From: a virus
Virus record (IMG/VR): IMGVR_UViG_3300031991_000112
DNA length: 64,000 bases
Strand: one strand, 5' to 3'
Shown: piece by piece, positions 2-42,558 of the stretch
Position numbering within the stretch: the stretch's first letter is position 1
Layout: the number at the start of each line of letters is the position of its first letter
Translations under genes and position numbers: made by a program
The notes under the pieces: model-generated
Told to the model about the DNA's origin: nothing
Database searches by the model: none
Seen by the model: only the letters and a program-made list of their open reading frames with translations

Positions 2-577
2 GGGGATTCGGACCTAAAATACGATGTATGCAAAAACCCAAAAGGCGAAAAACTTCCAACTGCTGAGCACGCATTCTTACCAAAAATGGTCAAAGATGCA
101 ATTCTTGCAAACCCTCGTATGATCGAACACATCGTCAACGAGCTTCACAAGGCAAAGCTTTTGGGACCAGTTGTCGCTGAACTCACGAGTTATCGTGAGA
201 CTTTCACTCATCTCACTGAAATCATGGCAAGCGAGGCTTATGGACCAACTGTCTGTGATCGTTTTGCTAGAAGTTTGCAAGAAAGCGTATCGCCCGGAAA
301 ATATGGAAGTGGTCGAGACGAATTTCTTCAAAAAGGTTTAGACGGCGAAGACGAGGAATCGCCTGATGAATTAGCCGACTTCGATGGCGAAGACGAAATT
401 CCAGACGATGAGATGATGGGAGACGAAGAAGGCGGCTCCCCGTTTGACGAGGAACCGCCTCTGGATGACGAGTTGGAACCGGGAATGGACGGTATGGGTC
501 CGCAAAAGCCAAAGGGTCTTCCAATGCCCAAGGCTCTTGAACACCTAAACTATTCTCTCGGCAAAAACTTCATTTAA
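2..577 (+). CDS. Hypothetical protein with acidic/Gly-Pro-Met-rich C-terminal tail, 5'-truncated by window edge
   Basis: Frame of ORF 86..577 is open back to position 2 (GDSDLKYDVCKNPKGEK...); D/E-rich low-complexity tail. Confidence 0.7.
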   Translation, partial: GDSDLKYDVCKNPKGEKLPTAEHAFLPKMVKDAILANPRMIEHIVNELHKAKLLGPVVAELTSYRETFTHLTEIMASEAYGPTVCDRFARSLQESVSPGKYGSGRDEFLQKGLDGEDEESPDELADFDGEDEIPDDEMMGDEEGGSPFDEEPPLDDELEPGMDGMGPQKPKGLPMPKALEHLNYSLGKNFI

Positions 578-1092
578 GGTCGCCAAACTTCGCCGTTGAA
601 GAGAAGTTCTGGTCCACCGAGAGTGCCATCAATAAGCTCGTATTCAACACCAGCTTCTTTCAGCATGACAAACGCCGTCTCAATGGATTCTTTCCAATGA
701 GGCGGCGTTTTGTTCATCATGGCTTTATGCCCGATGACCAAACGCACGCCAGAGCAGATGATTGATCGAGCACAATCAGCACAAGCGAACCACGGTACAA
801 ACATTGTACTGCCGTGGGTGCAATTGCCGCTCGCCGCTGCATCGAAGACCGCCCCACGCTCAGCATGTTCAACCATTGCGTACTTCAATGGACGCTCAAG
901 ACGCTCTGGCTTGTTCTCAACGCCCTCTGGGAAGGTGTTACAGGCAGCACCCAAAATGAGGTCAATATCTGGCTCTTTGCTCAGCATCCATGCTTCCGAT
1001 ACAATAATTGCACCGTTCTGCGTGGATGGATCAGGACTGGATTGAGCAATCTTATACGCTTCCAGCAACCAAAGTCTTTTTAGCTCTTCCAT
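574..1092 (-). CDS. dCMP deaminase (CMP/dCMP deaminase zinc-binding family)
   Basis: SPDPSTQNGA, HAE (VEHAERGAV) and CxxC (WFACADCARSII) motifs. Confidence 0.9.
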   Translation of the reverse strand: MEELKRLWLLEAYKIAQSSPDPSTQNGAIIVSEAWMLSKEPDIDLILGAACNTFPEGVENKPERLERPLKYAMVEHAERGAVFDAAASGNCTHGSTMFVPWFACADCARSIICSGVRLVIGHKAMMNKTPPHWKESIETAFVMLKEAGVEYELIDGTLGGPELLFNGEVWRP

Positions 1093-1735
1093 GATTCAAA
1101 ATCTCCATGAGTTCTGTGAGTGGTCTCATCTCTGAAAACCACATTTCCTTGTTTTTATGGGAACCACGAATTGCATCGACTCTGGGTTGATTCAGCACAT
1201 ACGCTTTATCCACCCAACCGACCATCACAACCCGTGCCCACCCATACTCACGCTCTTCTCTTTCAACAAAGCCTCCAACATAATAGTCTTTGTTGATCTC
1301 ATATCCTCGACCACTACAGCGGACGAGTGTTCTTCCATAATTTCGAGCAGCACATTTGATGTCGATCTTATATTGATCGATCAAATTATCGAACTCATCT
1401 CCGAATTCACGGTATTTCACATCCAATCGGTCGTGAAACAACTTGGCAAAAGCCATCTGCCCTAACAGTCCGGTTCGAACTGTTTTGTACTCATCTCCAC
1501 TTTCTCGAAGTAATCCTTGACCGTAATCCCCCGGCTTAGAATTTGCCCAATAGTTTTCACCCAAAGAACCTTTTACACAAACCGCATACTCTTCCTTTTC
1601 AACCATAACGGACATTGCTTCAATGTAGCGTCCGTCTTGTTTCAAAGTGGTGGTATCAGGGCATTCGAGGAATTCGGGGTAATAACTACCTTCATTAAAG
1701 ATTGCTTCAAGATCATAGTCGCTTAAATCGAACAT
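1052..1735 (-). CDS. Hypothetical protein, possible PD-(D/E)XK nuclease
   Basis: GQMAF...GDEFD...IDIKC pattern resembles restriction-endonuclease-like core; overlaps adjacent methyltransferase gene. Confidence 0.45.
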   Translation of the reverse strand: MFDLSDYDLEAIFNEGSYYPEFLECPDTTTLKQDGRYIEAMSVMVEKEEYAVCVKGSLGENYWANSKPGDYGQGLLRESGDEYKTVRTGLLGQMAFAKLFHDRLDVKYREFGDEFDNLIDQYKIDIKCAARNYGRTLVRCSGRGYEINKDYYVGGFVEREEREYGWARVVMVGWVDKAYVLNQPRVDAIRGSHKNKEMWFSEMRPLTELMEILNHGRAKKTLVAGSV

Positions 1736-2607
1736 AATCGTTCCTTATGACTTTCTGGGTATATGAGGAGTTCCACCTTTTTATTAGCGAAGTGTTCGCC
1801 TTCGTCGATGGATTGCTGAATGGTGTAGTTCACACCAATCTCCTCAATACACGCCCAATCATATATGTCACGAATTTCAGAACAGTCATCGTAAGATAAA
1901 ATCCAATGGTGTTCTGTTTGTTTAAGACTAGCGGCTAGTCTCTCGTGATCCTGTTCGGTGAAGGCATACTGATATAGCGATCCACCCTTAACGAAATAAG
2001 GTGGGTCTAAGTATAACAAAGCCATACCTTCATGGTCAATAAGAGATTGGAAGTCTTGACAAGTACAATTATTGCTTTGCAACTCAAAGTTGTTTAAGAA
2101 GTTGTGCAACTTGTCAATCTTCTTACACAAATTTTTGGGCGACCAACGGCAATCAATTAGATACTTGGAATCTTGAGTCTTGCCGCCCAAAGGTCCGCCA
2201 GACTTCGTTCCCAAACCAGAAAAGCTGATCTGGTGAATGGCAATCTTCTTGAAACCTACATCTACAATTTTTGCTTTTTGCTTTGGTAAAGCCTTCAGTT
2301 TCAACAGTTTGTCCTTGAACTCGTAATACGCCTCAACGCTCGGTGTAAAACTCAGGATTAGTTCTTTCAACTCTTCAGGATACGAAATCACTGAGTTCCA
2401 CAGAGCGGCGAGAGCCGGATCGAAGTCGTTGATCCAGATACGTTCCCACTGAGGATTCTGTTTCAAGAAAGCCGTGCAGATACCACCGCCGCCATAAAAT
2501 GGCTCACGGTACTGAAGCTCATAGTCATCGCCGTACACACTCAGGTGTTCGACAATACCTTTGCTCAGTTTGGACTTACCACCGGGATATCGAAACAAGA
2601 TGCTCAT
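1723..2607 (-). CDS. dam: DNA adenine methyltransferase (Dam/D12 class)
   Basis: FRYPGGKS, YREPFYGGG, INDFD and YLDPPY motifs; target sequence not inferable. Confidence 0.9.
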   Translation of the reverse strand: MSILFRYPGGKSKLSKGIVEHLSVYGDDYELQYREPFYGGGGICTAFLKQNPQWERIWINDFDPALAALWNSVISYPEELKELILSFTPSVEAYYEFKDKLLKLKALPKQKAKIVDVGFKKIAIHQISFSGLGTKSGGPLGGKTQDSKYLIDCRWSPKNLCKKIDKLHNFLNNFELQSNNCTCQDFQSLIDHEGMALLYLDPPYFVKGGSLYQYAFTEQDHERLAASLKQTEHHWILSYDDCSEIRDIYDWACIEEIGVNYTIQQSIDEGEHFANKKVELLIYPESHKERLCSI

Positions 2608-2608
2608 T

Positions 2609-3991
2609 TTAACAAGGACTCACATTGATTGGCTGTTGTGTTGAAAACCGAATTTTCATCTGCTTACCACCACGGGCAGGAGACAAGAAACGGGAGAACA
2701 ACAAATCGTGATGCACAGGCTCAACATCGTGAAGGTGTAAACAGTAAGCGACCAAAGAACCGCAAGCCGATCCACGACCGGGACCAACCGCTTCGCTACC
2801 GTCGCCCCAGCCCAAAACTTGCGGTGAGATAAACCGTGCCTGATCGGTCATTTCTTGCTGAATCAAGAAGTAAGAGGCGAAGCCTTTCTTACAGATCAGA
2901 CGGTATTCTTCTCGGATACGATCAAGGTACTTTTGAGTTTTTGGGAGCTTGCGTTCCTCGAACCCCGCCATCACTTTCTGCAATAGCAGTGTGTTGGCGT
3001 CCTCAAGTTGAGGCAACTTGATAGACCGGTCGAGTTCAACACCTTCACAGCGGCGACACAACTCAACAGTATTCGCCTTGGCTTGCTTGAAGAGTTCGTA
3101 ATCAATGATCTCTGAATACTCTTTCTCCCACATCTCGTTCAATTCAGGTTCGCTCTTCATCCAAAGATTGGTGTCCTGAAGTTCAAAGATGTCATCTTTA
3201 CCTTCGTCGATCAACTTTTGGATGTCCGCCAAAGTTTTGCCGTTTTGTTGAATCAACATCAAGTGCTGGTTCTTGCTGTGTTCTTTCCGACAATAGTGGC
3301 AGTCCTGAGTCAGTAGAAGTGGAAGACCGAACTTCCTATGGGCACGAATCAGAAAGGCGTCGTATGGTTTTTGTTCAACCCAATCCAACATCATGAGTTC
3401 GAGGTATAAGTGATCACGACCAAGCATATCGATATACTTCTGAATCATATCGAAACCTTCTTGATCGTCTTTATTACGCATGAAGGCTTGTGCGATCTCG
3501 CTGTTACCACAAGTTGAAGTGAAGATGATGCCTTCACAATGCTTCTTGAGCATCTCGTGGTTGATGCGGGGCTTGCGATAAAAGCCGTGAATCCACGCCC
3601 AAGACGTAAGACGCACGAGGTTTTGATAGCCGGTGAAGTTGTACGCCAATCCAAGCAAGTGAAATGACTTCTTGAAGATAGCTTGGTCTGCTTCGTTCAA
3701 ACTTTTGTAATAGTCGGCTGAGTCGCCACGAACATCGGCTTCAATCTGCAATGGGTTGATATACATTTCACAACCGAAGATCGGTTTTAGATTGTACTCG
3801 TCAGCTATTGCGATCTGGGACGGGATTGCTCCCATAACGCCGTGATCGGTAATTGCAAGGTACTTTTGATTTACCTCTGCCGAGTATTCGGCGTATTCAT
3901 GAACCTTTGCCAAACCGTCTAACAAGGAATAATCCGAGTGACGATGAGCGTGTTCAAATCCCATGACAGGGTGGTTTTCAATAAGTTTCAT
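2609..3991 (-). CDS. dnaE: DNA polymerase III alpha subunit, N-terminal part only (PHP domain plus start of palm)
   Basis: HAHRHSDYSLLDG, AITDHG, PIFGCEMY, HLLGLAYN, TQDCHY, GPGRGSACGSLVAYCL, LLFSRFLSPAR; ends at TAA before the PDID catalytic motif. Confidence 0.9.
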   Translation of the reverse strand: MKLIENHPVMGFEHAHRHSDYSLLDGLAKVHEYAEYSAEVNQKYLAITDHGVMGAIPSQIAIADEYNLKPIFGCEMYINPLQIEADVRGDSADYYKSLNEADQAIFKKSFHLLGLAYNFTGYQNLVRLTSWAWIHGFYRKPRINHEMLKKHCEGIIFTSTCGNSEIAQAFMRNKDDQEGFDMIQKYIDMLGRDHLYLELMMLDWVEQKPYDAFLIRAHRKFGLPLLLTQDCHYCRKEHSKNQHLMLIQQNGKTLADIQKLIDEGKDDIFELQDTNLWMKSEPELNEMWEKEYSEIIDYELFKQAKANTVELCRRCEGVELDRSIKLPQLEDANTLLLQKVMAGFEERKLPKTQKYLDRIREEYRLICKKGFASYFLIQQEMTDQARFISPQVLGWGDGSEAVGPGRGSACGSLVAYCLHLHDVEPVHHDLLFSRFLSPARGGKQMKIRFSTQQPINVSPC

Positions 3992-5252: not shown

Positions 5253-6887
5253 TTACAGCGATTCAAAATCTGCACGATGCATAAGTGCCACATCTTTGGC
5301 TGGGTCTTTACCGGTGCAGAGGTAGACGATTTCTTCGTCATCTTCATTAACGGTTGCCAAGGCAACATCATTCTTCCACAACCGATAGATTGAAGTCATG
5401 GTTTCACGAGCATATTTGTCATACAACTGACTGCCATTGCTCATGTGTTGCATCAGGAACCAACCCTTACCACGATGGTTCGGGTCAACCAATCGGATAT
5501 CCGGTAGACCACCGTTGACATATCGGTTCATCAATTTTTTCTTGATGTACTTAAAGTCTTTGTTGGTGATACGCCATTCCCATTCGTGTTTTGGATTCTT
5601 GGACGGGAACTTTTGACGTTCGTAATACTGCATCTTCTCGCAGAACTCCGGTGTGAAGTATTCGGCGATCAGAGTCAAGTCATTACAGTATTCACGAACT
5701 TGGAAGACCTTATCTCGACCAAGACCAAGGTTCTTATCCCAAGCCTTGCGTTCAACAAGGTTATCGCACTCATCGTATTCACGACCAAAGCGACCTTTGT
5801 TCCACCGCTCTTCAATATCCATGAGCAACTCAAAACCAAGTTTGTAAGGGTTTTGAGACCACTCACCGCCCAACACAAGCATCTTGTGCTTGGCGTACTG
5901 AATGATGCCCATATCGTGACGTTTTTGACCAGCGGCACACAAACCTTCGCCGCACATCAAGTGGAAGTCCACGTAAGACGCCCAACCTTCGTTGATCATC
6001 TTAGTCAACCGTTGCGGAGCGAAGTAAATCGATTCTTCGTACAGCATCGACACGATATCTTGTTGCCAAGGTCGTAGGGGTGCGTTGTCTTTCAGGTAAC
6101 CGAAGATATCCTTCTCTGGTCCAGAGAAGATTTCGAGTTCCTTGGCAACTTCCTTACGATTCAATCGTTCTTTCTGCTTACCGATGAATCCTTTGGTGTT
6201 CACCCAATCTTCCATGTACTCGTTTGTAGGCACACGGCGATCTGGGTGTTCGATCTCACGGCGGTCACGAAGTTCCATCTTGGGCATCGGTTTAGGATGC
6301 CATTCTTTCGACGCATCGATCAGGGTATCAACACGCAACACATGGTCGATGAACTCGGTAACTCGCTCCTTGCCCCAACGAGCCATGTACTTGCGAATTC
6401 GTTTGCCGTGATTGGCAAACTTATTCATCATGTCGGTGTTTGTACCACGGAAGAACACATTGTTCTTGAAAAAATCGTTATGCCCCAAGGCGTGAGCGAT
6501 AACGTCAATGTTATCCACAAGCGTGTTGGAGTCGAGACAGTAGATCACGCACGGATTGGTGTTTACCACCATTTCCGAGATGCGATGCATACCGTACTCG
6601 TAACCACGACTCATCTCTTCGTATTCCATACCGAAAGACCAGTGCGGATACCGCACAGGGAAACCACCATAAGAGGCAATTTCCGAAATATCGTCGTAGG
6701 TACAAAACTCGATGATAGTCGGGTAGTAGTCGAGTCCAAACTCTTTACACTTTTTGAAAATTGTATCGAGTTGTTCTTTGACTTCCGGGTGAATCTTCAC
6801 ACCCGGCGTTGAATTATCACCGATGAGGAACGGTGATCCACTCAACATACGACTTTTGTTTTGTGGTGCAGTCTTACTCTTGCTCAT
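5253..6887 (-). CDS. spoVR: SpoVR/YcgB family protein
   Basis: GGFPVRYPHWSFGMEY, EMVVNTNPC, AHALGHNDFFKNN, TKMINEGWASY, NPYKLG motifs. Confidence 0.92.
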   Translation of the reverse strand: MSKSKTAPQNKSRMLSGSPFLIGDNSTPGVKIHPEVKEQLDTIFKKCKEFGLDYYPTIIEFCTYDDISEIASYGGFPVRYPHWSFGMEYEEMSRGYEYGMHRISEMVVNTNPCVIYCLDSNTLVDNIDVIAHALGHNDFFKNNVFFRGTNTDMMNKFANHGKRIRKYMARWGKERVTEFIDHVLRVDTLIDASKEWHPKPMPKMELRDRREIEHPDRRVPTNEYMEDWVNTKGFIGKQKERLNRKEVAKELEIFSGPEKDIFGYLKDNAPLRPWQQDIVSMLYEESIYFAPQRLTKMINEGWASYVDFHLMCGEGLCAAGQKRHDMGIIQYAKHKMLVLGGEWSQNPYKLGFELLMDIEERWNKGRFGREYDECDNLVERKAWDKNLGLGRDKVFQVREYCNDLTLIAEYFTPEFCEKMQYYERQKFPSKNPKHEWEWRITNKDFKYIKKKLMNRYVNGGLPDIRLVDPNHRGKGWFLMQHMSNGSQLYDKYARETMTSIYRLWKNDVALATVNEDDEEIVYLCTGKDPAKDVALMHRADFESL

Positions 6888-8125
6888 GCCTTGTACTCCC
6901 TCTCTTTGCCGATGATGCTTTTAATGGCTTCAATGATTTGAAGGTCACGCTCTTCGTCGCCCAAAGGTTGCGAACCGTAATCAGATTTGCCACTATTGGC
7001 TTTTGGTGCGATTAAAGCGGTACGAACGTGTTCGTACCCAGCTTTGGTAGCCAAATGATCCTTTACACCAAGACTTTTGTCAAGGTATTCTTTTAGAGTT
7101 CCTTCACTGCCCCAACTTCCGTAAGGGCAAATTTCAGTAAACCCGATCATGTTGACAATTTCGGGACCAAGTTCTTTCTGCATAAGATCGATGATCTTAT
7201 TGTTGTCCCCACCGCCCCAATTATCACCATCAGAGAAGTAGAAAATGTAAATGTTATACTGATCTGGTGGGAATCGGTTCTCAAGGATGTCGGCGACCAA
7301 TTGGAAGCCAGACGAGCATCGAGTTCCGCCGCCGCCACGATAGCCATAGAACTTTTCTTTCGAAACTTCCTCGGCATCTGTGTCGTGGACGATGTAACAT
7401 CGTTCCATTCGGTCGTAGTATTGCTTAATCCAGATGTCAATCCACCAAGACATATCACTCACGACATCACAACGGAAATCATCCATCGATCCCGAACAGT
7501 CACGAATAAAGAAGATCACAGCATTGCTGGATGGAATCTTCTCTTCTTGGTACTGACGGTATCGTTTATCGGAATTGATTGGAGTGATCAACGGCATCGG
7601 CACAGTGGTGCCGGGCAGTAGATGCAACTTTTGCAATTCGCCAGTAGCCGCCAATCGTTTAGCGGCTTCCAGCATTGTTCGGCGTGTATGACGAAGTGAC
7701 TCTGGACCCATTCGAGAGATGTCGTTGTAACGAATCTTAATCTCTTCATAGGTCTGGTTTGGCTTCGGCTTCATTTCCGGCAGTTGCAACTCATCCTTGA
7801 GGAACTTGAGGAATTCGTCGAGATCGACGCCTACCGTAATTCCATCAACGTGTTGATCACCGGCTTTGTTACCCTTGCCGTCACCCGGTTCGTAGCCAAC
7901 AACATCGCCTTCTTCACCTTCGCCACGTCCAAGGGCTTTCTGCCCGTTGTCGCCATGAAGGAAACGAGGTTGTTCAATACCTGTGACATTGACTCGAATA
8001 CGACCACCATCAGGGCGTTGCTTAATGAATCCGCCTGATTTTGTTAATCGTTTGAGTTCTTTGCGAGTTCGTCCGCCGACGACATCTCTGAAATGTTTGT
8101 GATCTTCTTGAATTCTTCTAGGCAT
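6884..8125 (-). CDS. yeaH: YeaH/YhbH (DUF444) family vWA-like protein
   Basis: AVIFFIRDCSGSM (MIDAS-like), GGGTRCSSG, YFSDGDNW; start set at MPRRI (8125) with GAGGA RBS. Confidence 0.9.
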   Translation of the reverse strand: MPRRIQEDHKHFRDVVGGRTRKELKRLTKSGGFIKQRPDGGRIRVNVTGIEQPRFLHGDNGQKALGRGEGEEGDVVGYEPGDGKGNKAGDQHVDGITVGVDLDEFLKFLKDELQLPEMKPKPNQTYEEIKIRYNDISRMGPESLRHTRRTMLEAAKRLAATGELQKLHLLPGTTVPMPLITPINSDKRYRQYQEEKIPSSNAVIFFIRDCSGSMDDFRCDVVSDMSWWIDIWIKQYYDRMERCYIVHDTDAEEVSKEKFYGYRGGGGTRCSSGFQLVADILENRFPPDQYNIYIFYFSDGDNWGGGDNNKIIDLMQKELGPEIVNMIGFTEICPYGSWGSEGTLKEYLDKSLGVKDHLATKAGYEHVRTALIAPKANSGKSDYGSQPLGDEERDLQIIEAIKSIIGKEREYKA

Positions 8126-8215
8126 TTGAATGTCCTCGTATAAGAAAAAGGCTAACTCTCGTCCGCTGTTCCGCCATGACATCACCTTTCAGCGGACGAG
8201 AGTAGCCAGTGTCAA

Positions 8216-10288
8216 TTACTCATCTTCATCGCCAGAAGCGAAGATGCTTGCGACGTATTCCAGAACATCGGTTGCCGATTTCTCGTTGTAACCGAAGTTC
8301 TTGACGAGTCGAGCTTTGATCGCATCGATCTTATCCTGAAGTTCAGGATCAACCGCTGCTGCTTCACTCGACAGTGAGGACAACTTGATAGAGTCTCTCG
8401 TATCATCGAACAACTTCAACTCAAGAGCACGCTTCAACTCAGGGTTTGAATCCCACTTGAAGTCCTGCTTACGAGCAGCCAATGTACCGATGAAGGCGGC
8501 GATCGACCGACGGAAGTCGGGAGAACCCTGATCGGGAATCTCGATCTTCTCTTCGATGCTTCTCATCAAACGTTCATCAGGCTCTTGGTCTTGACCAGTG
8601 ATTGGGTTGCGAACCTTTTCACGGTTGACGAAGGCAACAACGTTGTCGATGTACTTGGCACAGATGCGGACGATCAAGTTTTCGTCGCTGACAAGAGCTT
8701 TCTGAACTTCGTTCTTCAGAATGTCTTGCAGTTCCTTGACCGCCAGATCGTGAGCCTTTTCGTACTGATCGAGGTACTCGGCATCGACCAGCGAAGAGTT
8801 TTGCAAACGTGACTTCAGTTCGTTAAGAACGTGGAAGGCGTTGACATAACCCTTTTCACGGGCGATACAAGAAGAGATGCAGTCTTGCACATAACGTGCA
8901 GATACACCGAATTGCATACCTTCAGCAGGATACTTGTCACGGAGTTCTTTCACTCCGTCTTCGGTCCAGTTCGGCAGACTCTTGCCATCGTACAACTTGG
9001 CTTTGTCACGCAAATCCAGCTTGTTATCCGGGTCGTCATAGAGACGAGTCAGAACAGCGAAGAATGCAGACACTTCCAAGGTGTGCGGCATGATGTGCTG
9101 CTTCACCTTATCTGGTGCGTAGTCAAGCTGAAGAACCTTTAGTTCATCCGAGACACGCAGCAGGTACGGGATGTCAACCTTAACCGTTCGGTCACGAAGA
9201 GCTTCCATGTAGCGATTGCCACGCAGCTTTTCGTATTCAGGGTTGTTGGTGTGACCGATGATCAATTCATCCACACTGATTCGTGGGAACTTCTTCGGCT
9301 TGACACTGTGATCCTGAGTTGCTTCGAGCAAGTCGTAGAGGAATTCGTTCTGAAGCTTGAGTGCTTCAATGAATTCGATCATACCACGGTTGCCGACTTC
9401 GAATTCGCCATCGAAGTTGAAGGCACGAGGATCAGAGTCCGAACCATAGAAAGCGATGTTGCGGAAGTTGATGTCACCCGTCAACTCAGTCGAGTCTTGG
9501 TTCTTTTCGTCCTTCGGCTGGAACGTGCCGATTCCGATACGATCAGACTCAGAGTGGGCGAGACGCACCACACGAATGTGTTTGGCAACAACCTGTTCCC
9601 AATCACCGTTATACTTGTCGAGCAACTTCTTCATGAAGAGCTTGCAACGTGGGTTGAGTTCACCTTCGACACGCAGGTCGTAAGATTGGTGACTCTTAAC
9701 GCCATTCACTTCATGTGAATCTACAAATTTTGCATTCACATCTTCGAGGAACGGAACCAACATTTCCTTTGGCAGGAGTTTGACCGGGTTTTCACGAAGA
9801 GCAGAGCGGCACTCTGGTTCCGCAAAAACATCTTCAGGAAGATCAATCCAATCAAAGGTGTACCAAGCACCTTCATCCGTGCGGCTGTATCGTTCCAAGC
9901 CTTCTTTGATGGCTCGGCAGATGGTGGATTTCGAAGAACCCACAGGACCGTGGAGAAGCAAGAAACGCTTCTGAGTTCCGTAACCACCGGCAGCACCTTC
10001 AAGGTAGTTGACAATGGCGTCCAACGATTCCTCAAGTCCAAAAATCTTGACCTTGTGCTTGGTGAAGAAGTTGTACTTGGTGTATGTCTTACGGAATCTC
10101 TTGAACTTCTCAGTTCCGTCCGACATGATCATTTCATAGACGTACTGGTAAGCATTACGCAGTAGTCTTGGGTTTTCAGTACACTTCGTCAGATACTCAT
10201 CGAGAGTCATTGACTCATTGAGCGTCACAAAACGCTCTCGATCATAGTGTCGGGTGTACTTGGACAGGGTGGAATTGGTGACTTCCAT
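8216..10288 (-). CDS. prkA: PrkA/YeaG AAA+ ATPase / serine protein kinase
   Basis: LLLHGPVGSSKST, QPKDEKNQDSTELTG, DPRAFNFDG, NRGMIEFIEALK, HTNNPEY; start set at MEVTN (10288) with GAGAGG RBS. Confidence 0.93.
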   Translation of the reverse strand: MEVTNSTLSKYTRHYDRERFVTLNESMTLDEYLTKCTENPRLLRNAYQYVYEMIMSDGTEKFKRFRKTYTKYNFFTKHKVKIFGLEESLDAIVNYLEGAAGGYGTQKRFLLLHGPVGSSKSTICRAIKEGLERYSRTDEGAWYTFDWIDLPEDVFAEPECRSALRENPVKLLPKEMLVPFLEDVNAKFVDSHEVNGVKSHQSYDLRVEGELNPRCKLFMKKLLDKYNGDWEQVVAKHIRVVRLAHSESDRIGIGTFQPKDEKNQDSTELTGDINFRNIAFYGSDSDPRAFNFDGEFEVGNRGMIEFIEALKLQNEFLYDLLEATQDHSVKPKKFPRISVDELIIGHTNNPEYEKLRGNRYMEALRDRTVKVDIPYLLRVSDELKVLQLDYAPDKVKQHIMPHTLEVSAFFAVLTRLYDDPDNKLDLRDKAKLYDGKSLPNWTEDGVKELRDKYPAEGMQFGVSARYVQDCISSCIAREKGYVNAFHVLNELKSRLQNSSLVDAEYLDQYEKAHDLAVKELQDILKNEVQKALVSDENLIVRICAKYIDNVVAFVNREKVRNPITGQDQEPDERLMRSIEEKIEIPDQGSPDFRRSIAAFIGTLAARKQDFKWDSNPELKRALELKLFDDTRDSIKLSSLSSEAAAVDPELQDKIDAIKARLVKNFGYNEKSATDVLEYVASIFASGDEDE

Positions 10289-10331
10289 GTTTTCGAACCT
10301 CTCTATGAGTTTTGATGCTGAAAAAAGAAGC

Positions 10332-10544
10332 TTAACAAACTTCTTCGTCCGTTTCAACGGTCTTAATGATAACCTCTGGTATAAGATCGTCAAGACCAAT
10401 CGCTCTTAAATAATCTTTGCAGGCATCACGCATTTCTAAAGCTTCAGAAATATCGTTTGTGTCCCAAAGTCCAAATTTCGGATGTTTAAGATCAACACCC
10501 GACGAGCGATTGTGTAATTTATACTTTACCGGGGTTACTGTCAA
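10332..10544 (-). CDS. Small hypothetical protein
   Basis: 70-aa ORF co-oriented and contiguous in the minus-strand operon. Confidence 0.55.
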   Translation of the reverse strand: MTVTPVKYKLHNRSSGVDLKHPKFGLWDTNDISEALEMRDACKDYLRAIGLDDLIPEVIIKTVETDEEVC

Positions 10545-16588: not shown

Positions 16589-16630
16589 GGTGTCATCCTT
16601 GACCGAGCCTTCCATTGCTCGCACGACAAT

Positions 16631-16658
16631 ACCTTAACGAATTCCCAAATCGAGTCAA
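16631..16658 (-). promoter_or_regulatory. Sigma70-like promoter
   Basis: TTGACT-N16-TAAGGT on the minus strand. Confidence 0.45.
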
Positions 16659-16688
16659 GACCACTCTTTTATTTCGTAAGGAGAAATA

Positions 16689-17360
16689 ATGATTACAGAA
16701 CTCGGTGACAACCTGCACGTGCTTTTTGTTCCAAAGGTCGGAGAGGATTGGGAAATCTTTGCTTCATGGTATTCGGTAAACAAGAACTTACCTTATGCAT
16801 CCACATCATTGGTTTACACAATTGAGGAAGACACAATCGTCTTTCAGTTGTTCCAATGGGCGAAGCGACTTGAGATTCCAACTTGCGGACTCTCGGACCG
16901 AAAGGATAATTTACTGAATTCTATCGTTGCTCTCTATAAGACTTTGAAAGAAGTTAACAAGCCAATTTTGATTGTGCCATCCTTACACATGGTTCTTAAG
17001 CCGTTACCAACAGAAATTATTGATGTGCTTAACAACCGAGGAGAACTTATCTGGGATCAAACGGGTATTGGACTCTGTACGATGACGGCAAAAAATTTAG
17101 AAGATGCATGGAATGCTTATGCTTTAACGGGAACGATTCCAAACTTGCAGCAGTTGAGCGTAATAGTGGAAGCCAAAGAGACTGAAGAGTCTAAATCACT
17201 GGTCAGCTATAAGAAAGGGTGCGGCAAATGGATACATACGAAGAAGGGATGTCCGTTTGCAAGTGCAGGAGGCTTGGTTGATGAAGTGATGACAATCAAC
17301 GAACAGAAGATCGTTGATTTGTGGCGAAAGATGGTTCCACTTTACAGTTCAATTAGTTAG
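16689..17360 (+). CDS. Hypothetical protein
   Basis: 223-aa ORF with AGGAG RBS. Confidence 0.7.
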   Translation: MITELGDNLHVLFVPKVGEDWEIFASWYSVNKNLPYASTSLVYTIEEDTIVFQLFQWAKRLEIPTCGLSDRKDNLLNSIVALYKTLKEVNKPILIVPSLHMVLKPLPTEIIDVLNNRGELIWDQTGIGLCTMTAKNLEDAWNAYALTGTIPNLQQLSVIVEAKETEESKSLVSYKKGCGKWIHTKKGCPFASAGGLVDEVMTINEQKIVDLWRKMVPLYSSIS

Positions 17361-17373
17361 CGAGGAAAACATC

Positions 17374-17640
17374 GTGGAGAGATACTTTCATAACGAGCCT
17401 GACGATGATGATGAAAACGAGCACGAAGACATGGAGCAATTTGTAAGAGCTTCCAAGTCAGACATCATGGACGTAATGCAAATGGAGCTTGCCGAACAAG
17501 AACTCAATCAGAGACTTTTGGAGCAAGCACATACAATCGCAAAAGCAGAGTGGAAGTGGATGTTCCGTTCTACAACTTACAAAATGAAGAAAGTTCAAAG
17601 AATTTTCGACAGACTAAAACGAATTGTTTCAGAGGAATAA
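17374..17640 (+). CDS. Hypothetical protein
   Basis: GAGG RBS then GTG; acidic N-terminus. Confidence 0.6.
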   Translation: MERYFHNEPDDDDENEHEDMEQFVRASKSDIMDVMQMELAEQELNQRLLEQAHTIAKAEWKWMFRSTTYKMKKVQRIFDRLKRIVSEE

Positions 17641-23217: not shown

Positions 23218-23538
23218 ATGTTCGGAATTTTCAAACACAAAAAACCCGTCGAGCCAATTTGCGGCAACTGCCGCCTCTTCAATCCAAAAGACAAACGCTG
23301 TAGTGTTGTAATCTTACACGAAGGTGAAAAGATCAACATTCCTGTCGATCCAGAGGATTCCTGTTTCTTCGAAGAACAATACTTTGACCCCATCACCGGC
23401 AAAGTCGAAGATTTCAATGACATCAAAGAAGTCAAAATTTGGACAGAAGATGATAAGGGTCGGCGGTCGAACAAAGGCACCGTTAAAGTCGAAGTTCCAG
23501 AGGAACTCGAAATTGGCGGCATTGACAGCTTCATCTAA
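23218..23538 (+). CDS. Hypothetical Cys-containing protein
   Basis: AGGAGG RBS; CGNC...C...C. Confidence 0.65.
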   Translation: MFGIFKHKKPVEPICGNCRLFNPKDKRCSVVILHEGEKINIPVDPEDSCFFEEQYFDPITGKVEDFNDIKEVKIWTEDDKGRRSNKGTVKVEVPEELEIGGIDSFI

Positions 23539-25571
23539 AGCATCTTACGCAAATTGGCGAGTTTAGCATCCTGCTTGAGTTTCTGAATTGCTTTAACGTC
23601 TTTTAGCTTCAAGGTTGCCGAGAGAGCGTCTACACTCATGTTGGCTACATCATCTACAGTGAGACCAGCAGCATGTAGTCGCTCTGCTCGGACTTTGCCC
23701 ACACCGGGCAAAGAAACAAGCTCAAGCAACTCAGGCTTAACTCCGTACAGAATACGTTGACGCAGTGTGTTGAAGAAGTCTTTCTTCTTCCACTTCGAAC
23801 TCATGTCGTCGATAGCGTTGACAACTTCCATCGTGCGGTCGAGATCAAGACGAATACCAGACTGTAATGCAGCAAGAGATTTGGCGTTCTCGCCATTCAT
23901 CATCTTGTAGTAAGCACAACCAGCCTTGATGCAGCCATCAGAGAACTTGCCGCTGCCATAGATGCCTTGCACCTTGCGTTGGAAACTCTCAATCTCCATC
24001 TTTTCTGCCTTGTTGACAATACTGAAACGGTGACTATCTACATTCCCAAGAGCCATCGCAACAGCAAGGTCGTTTTTCTCTTGACCCTTCTCAAAAACAC
24101 CGTGCAAATTACGGCGTAGGTCTGAAACGTCAAAGGGAGAGAAGTAGAACATCGAGGCAATGTTGCCAACCGGTGTGGTCTTATACTTCCCATCTTCGAT
24201 GGTGATACACTTGGTATTTTCCAAAAGCTTGATTACCTTGTCGATGACATGATCGTCAAACCTTTGGTCTTGGAAGTGTGCCAGTGAGTCAGAAAACCAC
24301 TCGTAGAAACCTTCTTTGGTTTGAATGTTGTTGTGATGGATTTCACTTACGATATGGAATGCTAACGTCTTGTGGTGCCCACCAACGTCTTCCAACAACT
24401 GTGATTTAATCGGCGTTGCTTTCTGCAACCGGATCATCCACTCATTGCTTCTGCTGTCTGGAATGAGGATATGAGCATCACCACGAGGGTCATACTTCGG
24501 GCGACCAGCACGTCCAATCATCTGACGGATGTCATAGTTTTCCACATTGCTGAGACCTCGATGCACGCCGGTAACGATCACACGGCGAGCGGGAAGGTTA
24601 AGACCCCAAGCAAGCGTGCTGGTTGCGACAATAACACGGGTTTTCGGGTCATTCTTGAATGCTTCTTCAAGTTTGCCACGCTTTTCGGCAGTTAGATCGG
24701 CATTATGGAACTCAGCCTCAATGCCGAGGTTTTCCAAAGTTTCAACCATCAACTTGCCAGTGTTTTTGGTATGCACAAAGACAAGAAACTTATCATCAGA
24801 ATAGTGGTTGACAATACCAGCCGCCATTCCAACTTTTGCTTTTTCCTTCTCCTCGTAATTTCCATAATCTGGATAGGTTTCGTAATGGATTTTCAAAGGA
24901 CAAGGACGATAATCTGATTCGATCAAAACTGTGTCCCGACCAGTAATACTGCTTAACCAGTCGCAGATTTCGTCTACGTTGGGCATTGTTGCGGAGAGCA
25001 ACACAATGCGAACATTGGGGTTGATGGAAACCATCTTCATCAAAGCAACCTCAATATGGTCGCCACGAGATGGTACAGTAAGAAGGTGAGACTCATCGAA
25101 AACGATGGTCCCGACTTCTTTGAGGAAGCTTGACTTTTCAGACTTCTGGTTGCGACATCGTGAAGCCAACATTTCTGGCGTCATAACAATCACATCCGAC
25201 TTGTCGAGTTCCTTAATACGAGAATTTGTAAGTCGGAAGTCGCCGGTGCAGATGGAGATATTCAGATCATTGAAGTGATGATTTTTATCAGTCCAATCAT
25301 CTTGTTTCTCTTTGGCGAGAGCTTTGAGAGGTCCGACGTAGAGTGCTTTGCCCTTCCGTCTGCGAATTTCATCAGACATGTACATCTCGCCCATTACAGT
25401 CTTGCCAGCCGAAGTTGCGGCGGCGATTGCAATGTTTGTATCGTCGGATACATGATCGATGATGGCGGATTGAACGGGGTTAAAGAACTCAAATGGCCAA
25501 GATGCGTATTTGAATTCCTTAGTAGGAACCAAAGCATCATCTTCCTTGTCGTGGATGCGGATAACCGACAT
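23535..25571 (-). CDS. Ski2/Hel308-like SF2 helicase with C-terminal HhH
   Basis: AATSAGKT, DESH, LSAT, VATSTLAWGLNLPA, QMIGRAGRP, LPGVGKVRAERL; start set at MSVIR. Confidence 0.88.
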   Translation of the reverse strand: MSVIRIHDKEDDALVPTKEFKYASWPFEFFNPVQSAIIDHVSDDTNIAIAAATSAGKTVMGEMYMSDEIRRRKGKALYVGPLKALAKEKQDDWTDKNHHFNDLNISICTGDFRLTNSRIKELDKSDVIVMTPEMLASRCRNQKSEKSSFLKEVGTIVFDESHLLTVPSRGDHIEVALMKMVSINPNVRIVLLSATMPNVDEICDWLSSITGRDTVLIESDYRPCPLKIHYETYPDYGNYEEKEKAKVGMAAGIVNHYSDDKFLVFVHTKNTGKLMVETLENLGIEAEFHNADLTAEKRGKLEEAFKNDPKTRVIVATSTLAWGLNLPARRVIVTGVHRGLSNVENYDIRQMIGRAGRPKYDPRGDAHILIPDSRSNEWMIRLQKATPIKSQLLEDVGGHHKTLAFHIVSEIHHNNIQTKEGFYEWFSDSLAHFQDQRFDDHVIDKVIKLLENTKCITIEDGKYKTTPVGNIASMFYFSPFDVSDLRRNLHGVFEKGQEKNDLAVAMALGNVDSHRFSIVNKAEKMEIESFQRKVQGIYGSGKFSDGCIKAGCAYYKMMNGENAKSLAALQSGIRLDLDRTMEVVNAIDDMSSKWKKKDFFNTLRQRILYGVKPELLELVSLPGVGKVRAERLHAAGLTVDDVANMSVDALSATLKLKDVKAIQKLKQDAKLANLRKML

Positions 25572-25652
25572 GTCATTTTCCTTGACTATGAAACAAAATG
25601 AGTGCAGGTCGGTGCTATTATGAAACGACCTGCACTCATCCAAAATGCACAC

Positions 25653-28777: not shown

Positions 28778-30028
28778 TTACTCGTCATCGTTGGTTTCTT
28801 CTTCGTCTTCAACTTCAATATCCAACGGATTTCCGTCAGCATCGAAGACGACCTTCTTCTCAGAGAAGAGTCCGCTGTCCGTGTAGTTGATGGCAGCTTG
28901 GAATGGCAACAGGTATTCAGAAACCTGCTCAGCAGTCGTAGCACCAATCAAGGCTGGACACTCAAGCAACACTGCCGGTGGAACGTCATTACGTTCGAGG
29001 CTGCTCTTGAACTTGTACTCGTCTCTGCCTTCTGGCAAGTATTCAGAAGCAACGGTGTAGTTGCCCTTACCGGTCACACGTCCATCTTCGATGATGGCGG
29101 TCAACAATCCAGTAATTGGATTGATACCAGTCTCGAAGTAGAGCTTAATGCCTTCGTGCTTCACAAACGGACGGAAGGCACGATTCTTGATGTTCTTGAC
29201 TTCCATGTTCACACCAGAGAAGGTCTTGAGCTTCTTGTGCTCAATCTTCTTCTTCTGTTGTGTGCGTAGTCGGCAAGACGCATAGAATGGCAGCGAGTTT
29301 CCACCACCAGCGGTGGTTTCAGGTGAACCATAAAGAACACCGATCTTATCACGAGTTTGGTTGATGATGACAACTGTCACATCTTCCTTCTCAAGCATCG
29401 GTTGTAAGAGACGCAAACCTTTACCACAGACCTTGGCACGTTCGCCCGGTTGCTCTTTGGCACCGACGATTGTCTTCCAATCGGTTGGCTTGTAGTTCTC
29501 TGGCAAGTTCGTTTCACGGAACTCTCGTTCACAAGGCGAAACCGAGATCGAGTCGTAAACGACAACGATTGGCTTTCGTTCTTGCTTCAAAGCAATTTCA
29601 CGTGCTCGAATTTTCTTGACCGCATTGTGAATCTTGTTGAAAGCTTCTTCAAGAGTGAACGGCGTGTAACGCAATACACGCTTGGTGTTCAAGTGGGAAG
29701 CCTTCTCCATCCACTCAGCATTGGTTGCATTTTCGCAGTCAAGAATGATTGGCCAACCGCCAATCTTCTGGCAACCGAACAGAATGTTCGATGCGAGCAA
29801 AGACTTACCGGACGCTGAAGGTCCATAGATTTCGGTAATACGTTGACCGGGGATACCACCGTCAATGAACTTGCCGGAACAAATATAGTTCACTGCAAGG
29901 TTGCCTGTATCCACGAAGAACTTACAGTTCTCCAACTCGCCCAAGATATCGCCACCAGTTTCTTCTGCGACCGACTTAAAGAGATCGTCGCACATCTCAT
30001 CTTCACTTACAACTTTTTTCTTAGCCAT
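28778..30028 (-). CDS. recA: RecA/UvsX recombinase
   Basis: GIPGQRITEIYGPSASGKS, LDCENA, VYDS, INQTRDKIG..YGSPETTAGG..LPFYASCRL; start at MAKKK with GGAGA RBS. Confidence 0.92.
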   Translation of the reverse strand: MAKKKVVSEDEMCDDLFKSVAEETGGDILGELENCKFFVDTGNLAVNYICSGKFIDGGIPGQRITEIYGPSASGKSLLASNILFGCQKIGGWPIILDCENATNAEWMEKASHLNTKRVLRYTPFTLEEAFNKIHNAVKKIRAREIALKQERKPIVVVYDSISVSPCEREFRETNLPENYKPTDWKTIVGAKEQPGERAKVCGKGLRLLQPMLEKEDVTVVIINQTRDKIGVLYGSPETTAGGGNSLPFYASCRLRTQQKKKIEHKKLKTFSGVNMEVKNIKNRAFRPFVKHEGIKLYFETGINPITGLLTAIIEDGRVTGKGNYTVASEYLPEGRDEYKFKSSLERNDVPPAVLLECPALIGATTAEQVSEYLLPFQAAINYTDSGLFSEKKVVFDADGNPLDIEVEDEEETNDDE

Positions 30029-30216
30029 TGAAAGTTCTCCCATTTTTGTAATTCGTTTATATAGCCAATAGTTCATATTGCTCCAATCAGTCTATGTTCT
30101 TTTTCTTTTACGACTGTTGAAGAAATCGTCGCTCATCCCCTGTTCGTTTAGAGAAAGAGCCAGAACCAGTCTAGCTGATTCTGGCTCTCCTCAAATTCCG
30201 TTCTCAGAAAACCAGA

Positions 30217-31203
30217 TTAGCTGGCTTCCTTTTCCATTTCTTGCATCTGGCGAATGAAGTCTTCGTCTTCAACCGCAACTTCTTCTTCGACAGCCACTTC
30301 AGGAGTGGTTTCGACCGATGCCGATGCCTTGCCGACTACGCTTGCAACAGCGTCTTCGTCAGAGGCAGCAGAAGCCTTTCCACCGAACTTGGCGTCGAAA
30401 TCTGCCACGTTGAAGCCTTCACGATCATCTTCGATCAGACCACGGTGAATGGCGAGTTCCTTCTCAAGCTCTTCGAGCGGCACAACACGGTGCAACTCTT
30501 CGAGATCGTGCATACCAGCGACCCATTTTTGTACTTCTTCGGGAGTACCGAGAGGAGAAGGGTCACGGGCGAAGCTGGAACGGTCGTAGTTCGGGTAAGC
30601 TTCGTTACCAGTTCCACGCATTTCCACCTTGATGTGGAAATCGTATCCAGCCTGCGGATCAGTGATGTCACCGAGTGCTTCTTCAACGTCGTCACCGACG
30701 ATAGCACGAACGATCATCTTGTGAAGCGTCTTGCCAACACTCAGGATGCGAGGACCAACGTTGTTGAGGGTGTTGCCCTCACCGTCAGTCATCTTGCGAA
30801 CGATAGCGTTGTAGTAGTATCGTTCAATCGGCTTGATCGAACGAGCTTCAGCCTTGCAGCGTTCAGCCTCATCCTTGCGACCAAACTGTTCAGCCTTGTC
30901 AGCATCTCGCCACAGCGAGTTGTAGAAATCAACGATTGGGTTGGGCGTCTTGTCCCACTTGCCGTTGACGAGCCGCTTGGGATCATGCACCTTGCGACCG
31001 TTGATGTTGTGGATGCGTGTGTACGAATACAGACGCTTGCCCTTCAACGGTGGTAGGATGCGGACAGTAATCACGCCAGTCTGCCCCGGCTTGGGCTTAG
31101 GCATGGGGACGAATTTGTCCAAGAAAGACGACTGCTGGTCAGTATTGACCCGCTGATCTTCCTGTTGCATTTCGTCAAGATTCAACTTCCCGAATTCAGA
31201 CAT
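30217..31203 (-). CDS. Single-stranded DNA-binding protein, T4 gp32-like
   Basis: VRILPP, RYYYNAIV, ILSVGKTL, ITDPQAGYDF, YPNYDRSSF and acidic C-tail; upstream of recA. Confidence 0.8.
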   Translation of the reverse strand: MSEFGKLNLDEMQQEDQRVNTDQQSSFLDKFVPMPKPKPGQTGVITVRILPPLKGKRLYSYTRIHNINGRKVHDPKRLVNGKWDKTPNPIVDFYNSLWRDADKAEQFGRKDEAERCKAEARSIKPIERYYYNAIVRKMTDGEGNTLNNVGPRILSVGKTLHKMIVRAIVGDDVEEALGDITDPQAGYDFHIKVEMRGTGNEAYPNYDRSSFARDPSPLGTPEEVQKWVAGMHDLEELHRVVPLEELEKELAIHRGLIEDDREGFNVADFDAKFGGKASAASDEDAVASVVGKASASVETTPEVAVEEEVAVEDEDFIRQMQEMEKEAS

Positions 31204-31409: not shown

Positions 31410-31958
31410 TTACGCATTCGCTTTGAATGTGCATTCCGCACTTCCGCCAACACCCTCAATCTGGTCTATACACCCTTCACCGAACTCTTCTTGAGCTTGT
31501 TCTGCAAGATGCTTCATCTTCTCTTCCATAGACTTGAATCCCTGTTCTTCAAGCTCTTTGTTGATCTGGCTGCGATGCTCTGATTGTTCGACATACTCAG
31601 CTTCAAGTTCTTCAAGAACAGCAATGTTCTTCAAGACCTGTTGCTGTTGTTCCGGTGTAAGTTGAGTTTTCACCTTTTCGTAAGAAGCCTTTGCGACATT
31701 GATCTTTTCAGCAAGAGCCTTCGCTTTTGGAGATAAAGACGCAGTTCCATTTGCTAGAGCCTGTTGTTCTCGAATTTCTCTTAGCATGGCGTTATTCGCA
31801 CGGTTTTCGGCTTTCTCTTCCGCACGTGCCTTTAGCTGTGCCTCTTTCTCAATCTTACGTTGCTGTTGTGCAAGAGTTTTGCGTCTCAAAAGATTCTTTC
31901 GAGTTTGCTCTTCACGAGCCTTACGCTTCTTCAACTTCTTCTGTTCTTTGCTGGTCAT
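31410..31958 (-). CDS. Charged coiled-coil hypothetical protein
   Basis: K/E/Q-rich helical composition; TAATG coupling. Confidence 0.65.
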   Translation of the reverse strand: MTSKEQKKLKKRKAREEQTRKNLLRRKTLAQQQRKIEKEAQLKARAEEKAENRANNAMLREIREQQALANGTASLSPKAKALAEKINVAKASYEKVKTQLTPEQQQQVLKNIAVLEELEAEYVEQSEHRSQINKELEEQGFKSMEEKMKHLAEQAQEEFGEGCIDQIEGVGGSAECTFKANA

Positions 31959-32818
31959 TATACCCTCGTTGGTTTTGGTGGAACGTAGTCTGGTCGGATG
32001 TTGTGCATGGGGATTTCCATAACAGCATCTTCTTCACCTTCAACAGGAATGTGTGCAAACTCTTCAGGAATCTGCGAACGATCCACTTTGACGGCTCTTC
32101 GTTGTGGCACTCCACTGGAACTGTTTTGATATAAGAGTCGAGGTTGTTCTTCTTGTCGAAAGTCTCGATTGAATTGCTCGCCTCCCACCAAGCCTTGTGG
32201 TGCAATAATGAAATACTTCTCGTCTACTTCTGCAATTTCACCTGCATCATTGGTGATGGCATAAACGCTACCGAACTGTCCACCCAAGGGATTGTTACGT
32301 TGACGGTGGACATTGTATTTCTTCTCTGCCGTAAGCTTGTACTTCTTGGCAATGGCTACATCTTGTGGCTCAGGTCGGAAGATGATTTTGAACAGAGTTC
32401 TACGTTTTTGATCCGGTGTGAGTTCGATATTATCTTCAAAATTCACATCGCCAAGTTGAGGGTTCTGAATATGTCTTACAGCGGCGGCGACCACCGGACC
32501 ACCATTGTCTTCGACATACTCTTCAACCTGAACACCCTCGGTGTCCTCGATGGTGAATTTCTTACCTTTAAGTAAGATTCCAAAACCATCTTTGGACTCC
32601 TTGAAGGAAACTTTGCGTTTCACAAGTTCTTCGAGTTCAACATCTACAACCCAGATGTCTCGACGAGCCAGTTGTGCAAGAATTGCTTTGGCTGCACTAG
32701 AAAGGGGCGTGTCGTCAAAAGCTTTGCCGACTTTACGCTTCAGTTCCTTTCTTTGTTCGGTGTTGTAACCACCTTCGGGGTTACGTTCATGATAATGATA
32801 TGTAATCTCAAATCCCAT
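31958..32818 (-). CDS. Hypothetical protein
   Basis: 286-aa ORF with GAGGT RBS. Confidence 0.7.
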   Translation of the reverse strand: MGFEITYHYHERNPEGGYNTEQRKELKRKVGKAFDDTPLSSAAKAILAQLARRDIWVVDVELEELVKRKVSFKESKDGFGILLKGKKFTIEDTEGVQVEEYVEDNGGPVVAAAVRHIQNPQLGDVNFEDNIELTPDQKRRTLFKIIFRPEPQDVAIAKKYKLTAEKKYNVHRQRNNPLGGQFGSVYAITNDAGEIAEVDEKYFIIAPQGLVGGEQFNRDFRQEEQPRLLYQNSSSGVPQRRAVKVDRSQIPEEFAHIPVEGEEDAVMEIPMHNIRPDYVPPKPTRV

Positions 32819-32821
32819 TTG

Positions 32822-33433
32822 TTACCTCTTTGCTACTATCCCTAGAGTATATCGAGTCTGGTAAACGTCCGGTTCTCTACTGATGGACTTACACCAGTCT
32901 TGGAAAATTTCCATTCGACTCGGTTCTTGAAGGTGGTCTACAACTATTAACGCTTCAGAGGTTAGATTTCTCCAAACCTTGTCCAAGTAACGTCTCAAAA
33001 ACTTTTCCTCAACGTTTTGTGTAATCAGCCCGATATCCCATAAATCCGTTGAAACTAGCTCTTCAAACCTTGGAGTATCTCCAACATCAACCTTAATACT
33101 TCCGTTGTAATACTCTTTTAGAGTGGCTGTTCCGAGACGTGTTGAGTAGTAGTAGTCGCCAGTTGTAATTTGGAATCCGACATACTTTTCAACAGTCGAA
33201 CAACCTTGTGTAAAAGAAGCCACTACAAGCCCAAGCCCGAACCCAAGCTCAAGTACCTTTTTGGACTGAAGCTGAGTTCCCAGATGATAGTAGAACGGCA
33301 AATACTTCGGATCGTTCATGGTTGGAGTATCCCAATCACGAACCTCCATCAGTCTTGCTCGTGCAAGAAGAACCCTAGTAAAGACTCTACCATTGTGCAA
33401 TTTGTCGGTTAAATACTCTTTCATGTAATACAT
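32822..33433 (-). CDS. Class I SAM-dependent methyltransferase-like protein
   Basis: VLELGFGLG glycine motif and LIVVDH; start uncertain. Confidence 0.55.
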   Translation of the reverse strand: MYYMKEYLTDKLHNGRVFTRVLLARARLMEVRDWDTPTMNDPKYLPFYYHLGTQLQSKKVLELGFGLGLVVASFTQGCSTVEKYVGFQITTGDYYYSTRLGTATLKEYYNGSIKVDVGDTPRFEELVSTDLWDIGLITQNVEEKFLRRYLDKVWRNLTSEALIVVDHLQEPSRMEIFQDWCKSISREPDVYQTRYTLGIVAKR

Positions 33434-33452
33434 GAGTATAAGGTAAAAGAAA

Positions 33453-42039: not shown

Positions 42040-42064
42040 GTGCTACCTCCTTTGAGGTATCTAT

Positions 42065-42500: not shown

Positions 42501-42558
42501 CCATTCTTTAATTTTCGGACCGAATTGTGTAAGATAGTCTTATACAAATGGGGTTCAC

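Follow-up and report, generated by a model that had tools for sequence, protein, structure and literature searches.

Evidence for a two-chain, intein-less DnaE polymerase in a lineage of huge phages

Results

The 64-kb stretch of phage DNA analysed here (the window) encodes the N-terminal part of a DnaE-type DNA polymerase, which we call alpha-N or the N-half. We conclude that this protein is probably the N-terminal subunit of a natural two-chain DnaE that belongs to a huge-phage lineage, in which the chains would associate non-covalently, without an intein, to form a composite active site and would be docked by a tail on the first chain and an extension on the second.

The N-half gene ends before the first catalytic aspartate

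The ORF had been described in the initial annotation as a DnaE with a PHP domain, the motifs GRGS and LLFSRFLSPAR and an early TAA stop, with dam starting 1 nt further on, and the reading frame, the Pfam search and the sequence itself bore out each of these features (Table 1). GRGS occupies residues 405–408 (nt 2768–2779). LLFSRFLSPAR ends at R440, and the protein then continues with GGKQMKIRFSTQQPINVSPC up to the TAA. Pfam recognises the N-terminal PHP domain of DnaE-type C-family polymerases. Of the polymerase domain PF07733, only profile positions 3–98 of 260 are found, at residues 336–440; this part contains the GS motif and none of the catalytic aspartates. Fingers, HhH and OB domains are found neither in the ORF nor elsewhere in the window.

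Table 1. Features of the N-half and of the genes beyond its stop codon, in window coordinates
Feature	Coordinates	Strand	Content or basis
DnaE N-half (alpha-N), 460 aa	2609..3991	-	PHP, linker, nucleotide-binding palm-N, conserved tail
PHP domain core, residues 14-200	3392..3952	-	Pfam PF02811, E 7e-36
Palm-N subdomain, residues 336-440, with GRGS and LLFSRFLSPAR	2672..2986	-	Pfam PF07733 positions 3-98
Split-specific tail motif RGGKQMKIRFSTQQPI, residues 440-455	2627..2674	-	Cluster counts, low pLDDT
N-half stop codon TAA	2609-2611	-	dam ATG 1 nt beyond the stop
dam-type N6-adenine methyltransferase	1723..2607	-	Pfam MethyltransfD12; first cargo gene after the N-half
227-aa ORF	1052..1735	-	No Pfam or PHROGs match
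dCMP deaminase	574..1092	-	Pfam/PHROGs; cargo after the N-half
Acidic protein gene, 3' part	2..577	+	BLASTP E 3e-4 and 4e-4 to relatives

All nine PHP metal ligands are present in the N-half (H16, H18, D25, H50, E75, H111, C161, D230 and H232), the last two falling slightly outside the Pfam PHP envelope. They align residue by residue with those of M. tuberculosis DnaE1 (PDB 7pu7/5lew), which is about 30% identical to the N-half and shares its PHP metal site and GS motif, and they are invariant or nearly so in the alignment of relatives. In the palm-N region, G403, G405, R406, G407, S408, F432, R434, F435, S437 and R440 are invariant among 38 sequences of 57–77% identity. A single-chain AF2 model of the N-half (mean pLDDT 85.7) matches residues 9–418 of M. 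tuberculosis DnaE1 and 6–397 of E. coli alpha. With the first catalytic aspartate of E. coli alpha, which we take to be D401, as reference, the break lies 3–4 residues short of that aspartate in E. coli numbering.

Relatives encode the complementary part in a second gene

The remainder of the enzyme, with PDxDxD, the third aspartate, fingers, HhH and OB, is encoded in relatives by a separate gene of ∼860 aa (the C-half). We surveyed the co-occurrence of the two genes in 50 IMG/VR records, of which 46 have the split and four the fused form; the best IMG/VR matches to the N-half show 56–64% identity. The C-half is present in 36 of the 46 split records, always on the same strand as the N-half and downstream of it, at a distance of 2.2–14.8 kb, and the 36 include one genome, G036 (572 kb), that is complete and has terminal repeats. 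In eight of the 46 the contig ends less than 10 kb downstream of the N-half. Two more, G038 and G044, have no C-half in over 50 kb of downstream sequence, and a search for the finger domain was negative there too. Proximity of the halves is therefore not universal; strict linkage of strand and order holds in 36 of the 38 informative records. JGI contigs show the same arrangement as the IMG/VR records, and in G001 and G002 a second ORF with PF07733 positions 100–259 lies downstream on the same strand, at distances of 6.5 kb and 21 kb. In abundance, the C-half family equals the N-half family.

The Pfam coverage of the two products is complementary, with PF07733 positions 3–98 in the N-half and 100–260 in the C-half of relatives. 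The C-half of contig L002 (17598..20180, 860 aa) matches PF07733 100–260, DNA_pol3_finger and HHH_6 and has no PHP domain, and its model aligns with Pol III alpha structures, with Z 20–24, over the stretch that begins at E. coli residue ∼406 and extends to the OB domain. P89, D90, D92, D94, K247 and D249 of the C-half are invariant in the alignment of relatives.

Two further genes were seen in these contigs. A conserved AAA ATPase, possibly a replisome accessory factor of the lineage, is encoded directly upstream of the L002 C-half (16621..17601) and close upstream of the fused DnaE of L001 (4147..5211). G050, the IMG/VR record behind L164, holds besides its split pair a third ORF (31890..32558, 573 aa) that matches PF07733 3–259 in one piece and may be a second, short DnaE-like gene.

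The partner gene of the window phage is expected beyond the left edge

The absence of a continuation within the window, noted earlier from the sequence, was confirmed by tblastn with full-length DnaE and C-half queries. C-half queries from two relatives had no match in the 64 kb. The full-length DnaE of LR756511.1 gave a single weak match (31988–32452, E 0.008), which we rejected as chance: the ORFs at 31410..33532 are without a Pfam or PHROG match, and hhalign probabilities against both DnaE profiles were below 1%.

As only 2.6 kb lies downstream of the N-half, the C-half gene of the window phage is probably located outside the window. The acidic protein gene that runs off the left edge matches genes at L002:14010-15227 and L003:14810-16036 (BLASTP). 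In relatives this gene is found on the opposite strand between the halves; in L057 and L063 it immediately precedes the C-half. Because of this synteny, the C-half should lie just past coordinate 1. The contig to which the window belongs had no match in INPHARED or IMG/VR and no exact one in JGI metagenomes or GTDB genomes. The proposal of a two-chain replicase, made in the initial annotation, is thus supported by the relatives, which encode a separate downstream C-half; for the window phage the partner gene is predicted from synteny. The cargo between the halves varies among relatives and includes dam, dCMP deaminase, glycosyltransferase-like genes, the acidic protein and the AAA ATPase.

The halves overlap, and the signature motifs are divided between them

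The GS motif and the DxD, the two signature elements of the Pol-beta-type nucleotidyltransferase core, are separated by the break (between PF07733 positions 98 and 100), leaving the GS motif and the Arg-bearing helix in the N-half and PDxDxD with K247 and D249 in the C-half. The halves do not simply abut: they overlap by ∼90–110 residues, as the C-half opens with a diverged copy, ∼90 residues long, of the last subdomain of the N-half. Residues 327–376 of the N-half align with residues 4–52 of the C-half (hhalign, E 6.5e-4), and residues 13–88 of the C-half align onto the palm-N region of fused DnaEs (tblastn). The copy is ∼30 residues shorter and contains neither a GS loop nor an FxRFLxPxR helix. 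Its own conserved features are RLK.E..EID.Q.E.dYFL, NENNLL and D-F-D, with E33, Y45, N59, N62 and L69 invariant, and it folds as four confident helices in the single-chain model. The structure aligner VIA-align began every C-half alignment at model residue ∼95, so that the extension was not placed on the canonical subdomain. Two copies of one subdomain cannot both fill the canonical site, and motif conservation is the only guide to which of them would do so.

In the single-chain models, pLDDT is below 50 for the catalytic strand (85–93) and region 234–246 of the C-half and for the GRGS loop and tail of the N-half. As soft evidence, these low-confidence catalytic segments would fit an active site that is completed only in the complex.

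The duplicated subdomain also bears on another reading, in which the N-half is a free-standing PHP exonuclease or phosphoesterase that serves the PolA-like ORF at 40049..41359 or, loosely, the C-half; its palm fragment would be the remnant of an anchor, and the C-half would be self-sufficient. This would agree with the intact set of nine metal ligands, with the confidently folded copy of the palm-N helices that the C-half keeps for itself, with the resemblance of the N-half tail to the hexapeptide clamp-binding pattern, which is used by E. coli epsilon, and with the two records that have an N-half and no detectable C-half. However, GPGRGS and FSRFLSPAR, the nucleotide-binding signature of the Pol-beta fold, never vary in the N-half, whereas the C-half copy does not have them. 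This is the reverse of what is expected, since an anchor would not need the signature and a self-sufficient polymerase would. The linkage of the halves in nearly all informative records also speaks against this reading, as does the finding that fused relatives retain the N-half-type and not the C-half-type copy of the subdomain. We therefore regard it as unlikely. For its narrower form, a stand-alone PHP proofreader partnering PolA as suggested in the initial annotation, we found no support, because a mere exonuclease would not need the nucleotide-binding segment that the N-half keeps, and the N-half co-occurs with the C-half.

The tail of the N-half is a conserved element

Relatives of the N-half were collected from 5.8 billion proteins at E<1e-20, which gave 4499 matches, and the best 120 clusters were analysed. 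The tail had been called unrelated on first reading. It indeed shows no kinship with canonical DnaE, yet its first 15 residues form a motif that is kept in 119 of these 120 clusters. Position counts over the 119 clusters give R-G-G-[KR]-Q-M-[KR]-[ILTF]-[RK]-[HF]-[ST]-[IL]-x-P-[IV], and R440-G441-G442 are invariant in the 38-sequence alignment. Because the same motif and stop recur across relatives, we consider the tail a conserved functional element and not a read-out beyond the break. It is basic and amphipathic, with variable residues at 456–460, and the AF2 monomer model shows residues 438–460 as disordered (pLDDT below 50). The mean net charge is about +3.9 for the tail and about -5.7 for the C-half extension, so that the two elements are complementary in charge, in line with the proposed docking.

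The tail could instead be a clamp-binding-like peptide whose partner is the sliding clamp and not the C-half. Q-M-K-I-R-F fits the clamp-type pattern Q-x-x-[ILM]-x-F, but half of the family has His at the last position, and Thr occurs at the fourth, both of which are atypical of clamp motifs. The alternating pattern of the tail moreover appears to match the V-D-V-D-F strand in whose place the tail stands. Returning to docking on the C-half, about 20 cognate pairs show variants of tail and extension that are specific to a lineage, ...LEF... tails being paired with ...YGD-PD.... As the variant pairs belong to one clade, this is not independent evidence.

Fused relatives are without tail and extension

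Fused close relatives are rare, amounting to six clusters (L001, P0302, P0320, P0322, P0325 and P0315) among the best 120 longer matches, the rest of which are intein-bearing N-halves, and to the four IMG/VR records mentioned above. They read ...FSRFLSKARKDWPDVDVDF...; their subdomain is of the N-half type, and both tail and extension are missing. That both elements vanish when the chains are joined is our main argument that they serve assembly. Full-length enzymes, namely those of LR756511.1 (48.6% identity between the N-half and its first 440 residues), Streptomyces phage Muntaha (gp58) and M. tuberculosis (DnaE1), are single chains of 1100–1200 aa with a continuous FLxxxRxxxPDxDxDF.

In a tree of the N-terminal part, all split forms together with fused LR756511.1 form one clade that is nested among ordinary fused DnaEs. 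Within it, LR756511.1 groups with the split forms L022 and L026 (SH-aLRT 99). An AU test of a group that was named after the tree had been seen rejects the split forms as an exclusive clade (p 0.003). In a tree of the C-terminal part, built from members other than the deep ones, LR756511.1 is sister to 12 split forms and stands next to L022. A single split of a fused DnaE through partial duplication, with at least one later re-fusion, would be the most parsimonious history; alternatively, a fused lineage may have branched off early.

The halves are probably not rejoined covalently

A covalent product would arise if the tail were the very short N-fragment of an atypical split intein, or if the halves were joined by RNA splicing or bypass. 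In favour of this, inteins are common in this DnaE family, many N- and C-halves having matches to PF14890/PF14528; a split intein rejoins the DnaE of cyanobacteria; and phage metagenomes contain atypical split inteins with short N-fragments. However, the residue that directly follows the N-extein R440 is an invariant Gly and not Cys, Ser or Ala. The N-half protein matches no intein family in Pfam, in agreement with the earlier remark that it has no intein N-terminal block, and no Hint or intein family is found at the start of the C-half, although Pfam detects inteins elsewhere in the relatives. The N-terminus of the C-half is homologous to palm-N and not to Hint, with no His-Asn plus Cys/Ser/Thr before PDID. 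As to RNA, Rfam finds no intron and indeed no family at all in the window, and the halves are set apart by genes on the opposite strand. Covalent joining is thus highly unlikely.

Cyanobacterial dnaE-n and dnaE-c are likewise two distant genes, and functional alpha requires both products. Those halves bear intein fragments, through which protein trans-splicing ligates them, and their split is located much further towards the C-terminus. The huge-phage DnaE has no intein blocks at either end and is broken near E. coli alpha ∼397, so it is not a split-intein DnaE of the cyanobacterial type.

Both halves are often invaded by inteins in relatives (Intein_splicing, LAGLIDADG_3; insertions of 0.5–1.2 kb) at several sites, never at the split junction itself, and the window copy has none. 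Inteins are seen in the C-halves of L018, L031, L062, L065 and L067 and in the N-halves of L041, L046, L056, L059, L062 and L065; further intein-bearing members are P0006, P0134 and P0241-P0332.

The same break recurs in independent assemblies

The best 120 clusters are 57–90% identical to the window copy and 407–483 aa long, apart from one intein-bearing exception of 739 aa, and derive from contigs of up to 693 kb. The position of the stop and the tail are common to at least 119 clusters and more than 100 independent assemblies, which answers the earlier question whether homologous phages share the breakpoint. Far more distant homologs (L076 and L080, 34% identity) likewise end in SPxRGG plus a short peptide. 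PHROGs already contains families of ∼460 residues that match the window N-half end to end, among them phrog_7513 (461 positions).

A pseudogene, or a frameshift or misassembly in this one contig, might be suggested by the full-length 1179-aa gene of LR756511.1, the nearest record in the phage collection, and by the abrupt divergence of the 90% identical P0001 right after FSRFL. This reading has a negligible probability, as the recurrence of stop and conserved tail is far beyond chance or assembly error, the window copy carries every residue that is invariant in the 38-sequence alignment, and the N-half is no single truncated gene among full-length homologs.

P0001, the closest relative, comes from a 21.6-kb JGI contig. 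Its C-terminus after FSRFL reads ITCSWWQTNEN, a departure from the tail motif that resembles a one-base frameshift in the P0001 assembly.

Discussion

In the two-chain enzyme that we propose, chain 1, the N-half, would contribute the PHP domain with its full metal site, probably a proofreading exonuclease, and the triphosphate-binding elements, that is the GPGRGS loop and the FSRFLSPAR helix. Chain 2, the C-half of ∼860 aa, would supply the metal-binding half of the palm (PDxDxD and K..D), the fingers, HhH and OB. The chains would associate non-covalently into a composite polymerase active site, the docking pieces being the basic tail of chain 1 and the acidic four-helix extension of chain 2 (the duplicate without GRGS, with NENNLL). 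More tentatively, and with more doubt than confidence, we suggest that a large huge-phage lineage of global distribution has a Pol-beta-type site split over two chains, with docking elements that co-evolve, and that this state arose by partial duplication of a fused DnaE and was reversed by re-fusion at least once.

The only precedent for a split DnaE in phages that we found in the literature is that of Iyer et al. 2021 (PMC7824862), who reported that group 2.2 jumbo phages have a minimal Pol III alpha in split form. Its two stand-alone proteins are encoded by distant genes and are predicted to make up one enzyme with no intein involved, and it comprises only the nucleotidyltransferase core and the template-binding domain, beside a family B polymerase (PMC7824862). 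Compared by its description only, that enzyme is divided at the same seam as the huge-phage DnaE, the NTP-binding and the Mg2+/template-binding subdomains being encoded by separate genes in both. The minimal version is without PHP and the other Pol III domains, whereas the huge-phage pair carries PHP, palm, fingers, HhH and OB. Also unlike the jumbo-phage description, the huge-phage split DnaE is close kin of ordinary fused DnaE, with the duplicated overlap and the tail motif. No family B polymerase was noticed among the ORFs scanned, which are part of those in the 64-kb window. In the full-text literature, a coverage that leaves subscription journals outside, we found no description of a PHP-bearing, full-size, intein-less two-gene DnaE with overlap and tail.

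Phage genes that were broken up by homing endonucleases yield pieces that reassemble non-covalently. Such pieces abut, whereas the huge-phage DnaE halves overlap by about a hundred residues. Neither the part of the gap that lies within the window, where dam, the 1052..1735 ORF and dCMP deaminase had no endonuclease match in Pfam or PHROGs, nor the gap in the relatives examined showed a recognisable homing endonuclease. The T4-like genes in pieces (nrdA, gene 43) and the "fractured genes" with split inteins of Dassa et al. 2009 (PMC2677866) nevertheless resemble the present case in that an essential replication enzyme is made in two pieces with foreign genes between them.

If our reading is true, the huge-phage DnaE would be a natural and widespread replicative polymerase whose catalytic centre is shared by two non-covalent chains; assembly of the replicase would be a potential control point, and the split state would be derived and not primordial. 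The position of the huge-phage split clade within fused DnaEs and its apparent ability to fuse again argue that its split is a derived and reversible state. This nesting bears on the proposal that the split Pol III modules of jumbo phages reflect an ancestral state. The site 3–4 residues before the first catalytic aspartate would be defined as a tolerated split site of DnaE, and the tail and extension form a natural pair of candidate docking elements with a possible use in split-enzyme engineering. For annotation, "DNA polymerase III alpha" proteins of ∼460 aa in huge phages should not be marked as truncated pseudogenes, and the PHP-less proteins of ∼860 aa belong with them as partners.

Other genes in the window

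An HNH homing endonuclease gene (41356..42039, - strand; phrog_559, E 2e-36) overlaps the start of the PolA-like ORF by 4 nt. The PolA-like ORF itself (40049..41359, - strand, 436 aa) covers only positions 138–376 of the Pfam family A polymerase domain and may likewise be a replication gene that has been split, although the upstream stretch from 42040 to 44275 showed no further piece of PolA. The window also holds a T4-like replication and recombination set, comprising a RecA/UvsX-like protein, a gp32-like SSB, a DnaB-type helicase and a DEAD-box helicase with a C-terminal HhH (28778..30076, 30217..31203, 37673..39223 and 23535..25652, all - strand). The RecA match falls into two stretches, hinting at an insertion. 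Just upstream of the N-half lies a complete trio (5253..10399, - strand) of PrkA (8216..10399), a DUF444/YeaH-like protein (6884..8185) and SpoVR (5253..6887), which in bacteria form an operon associated with stress and sporulation and are here encoded by a phage.
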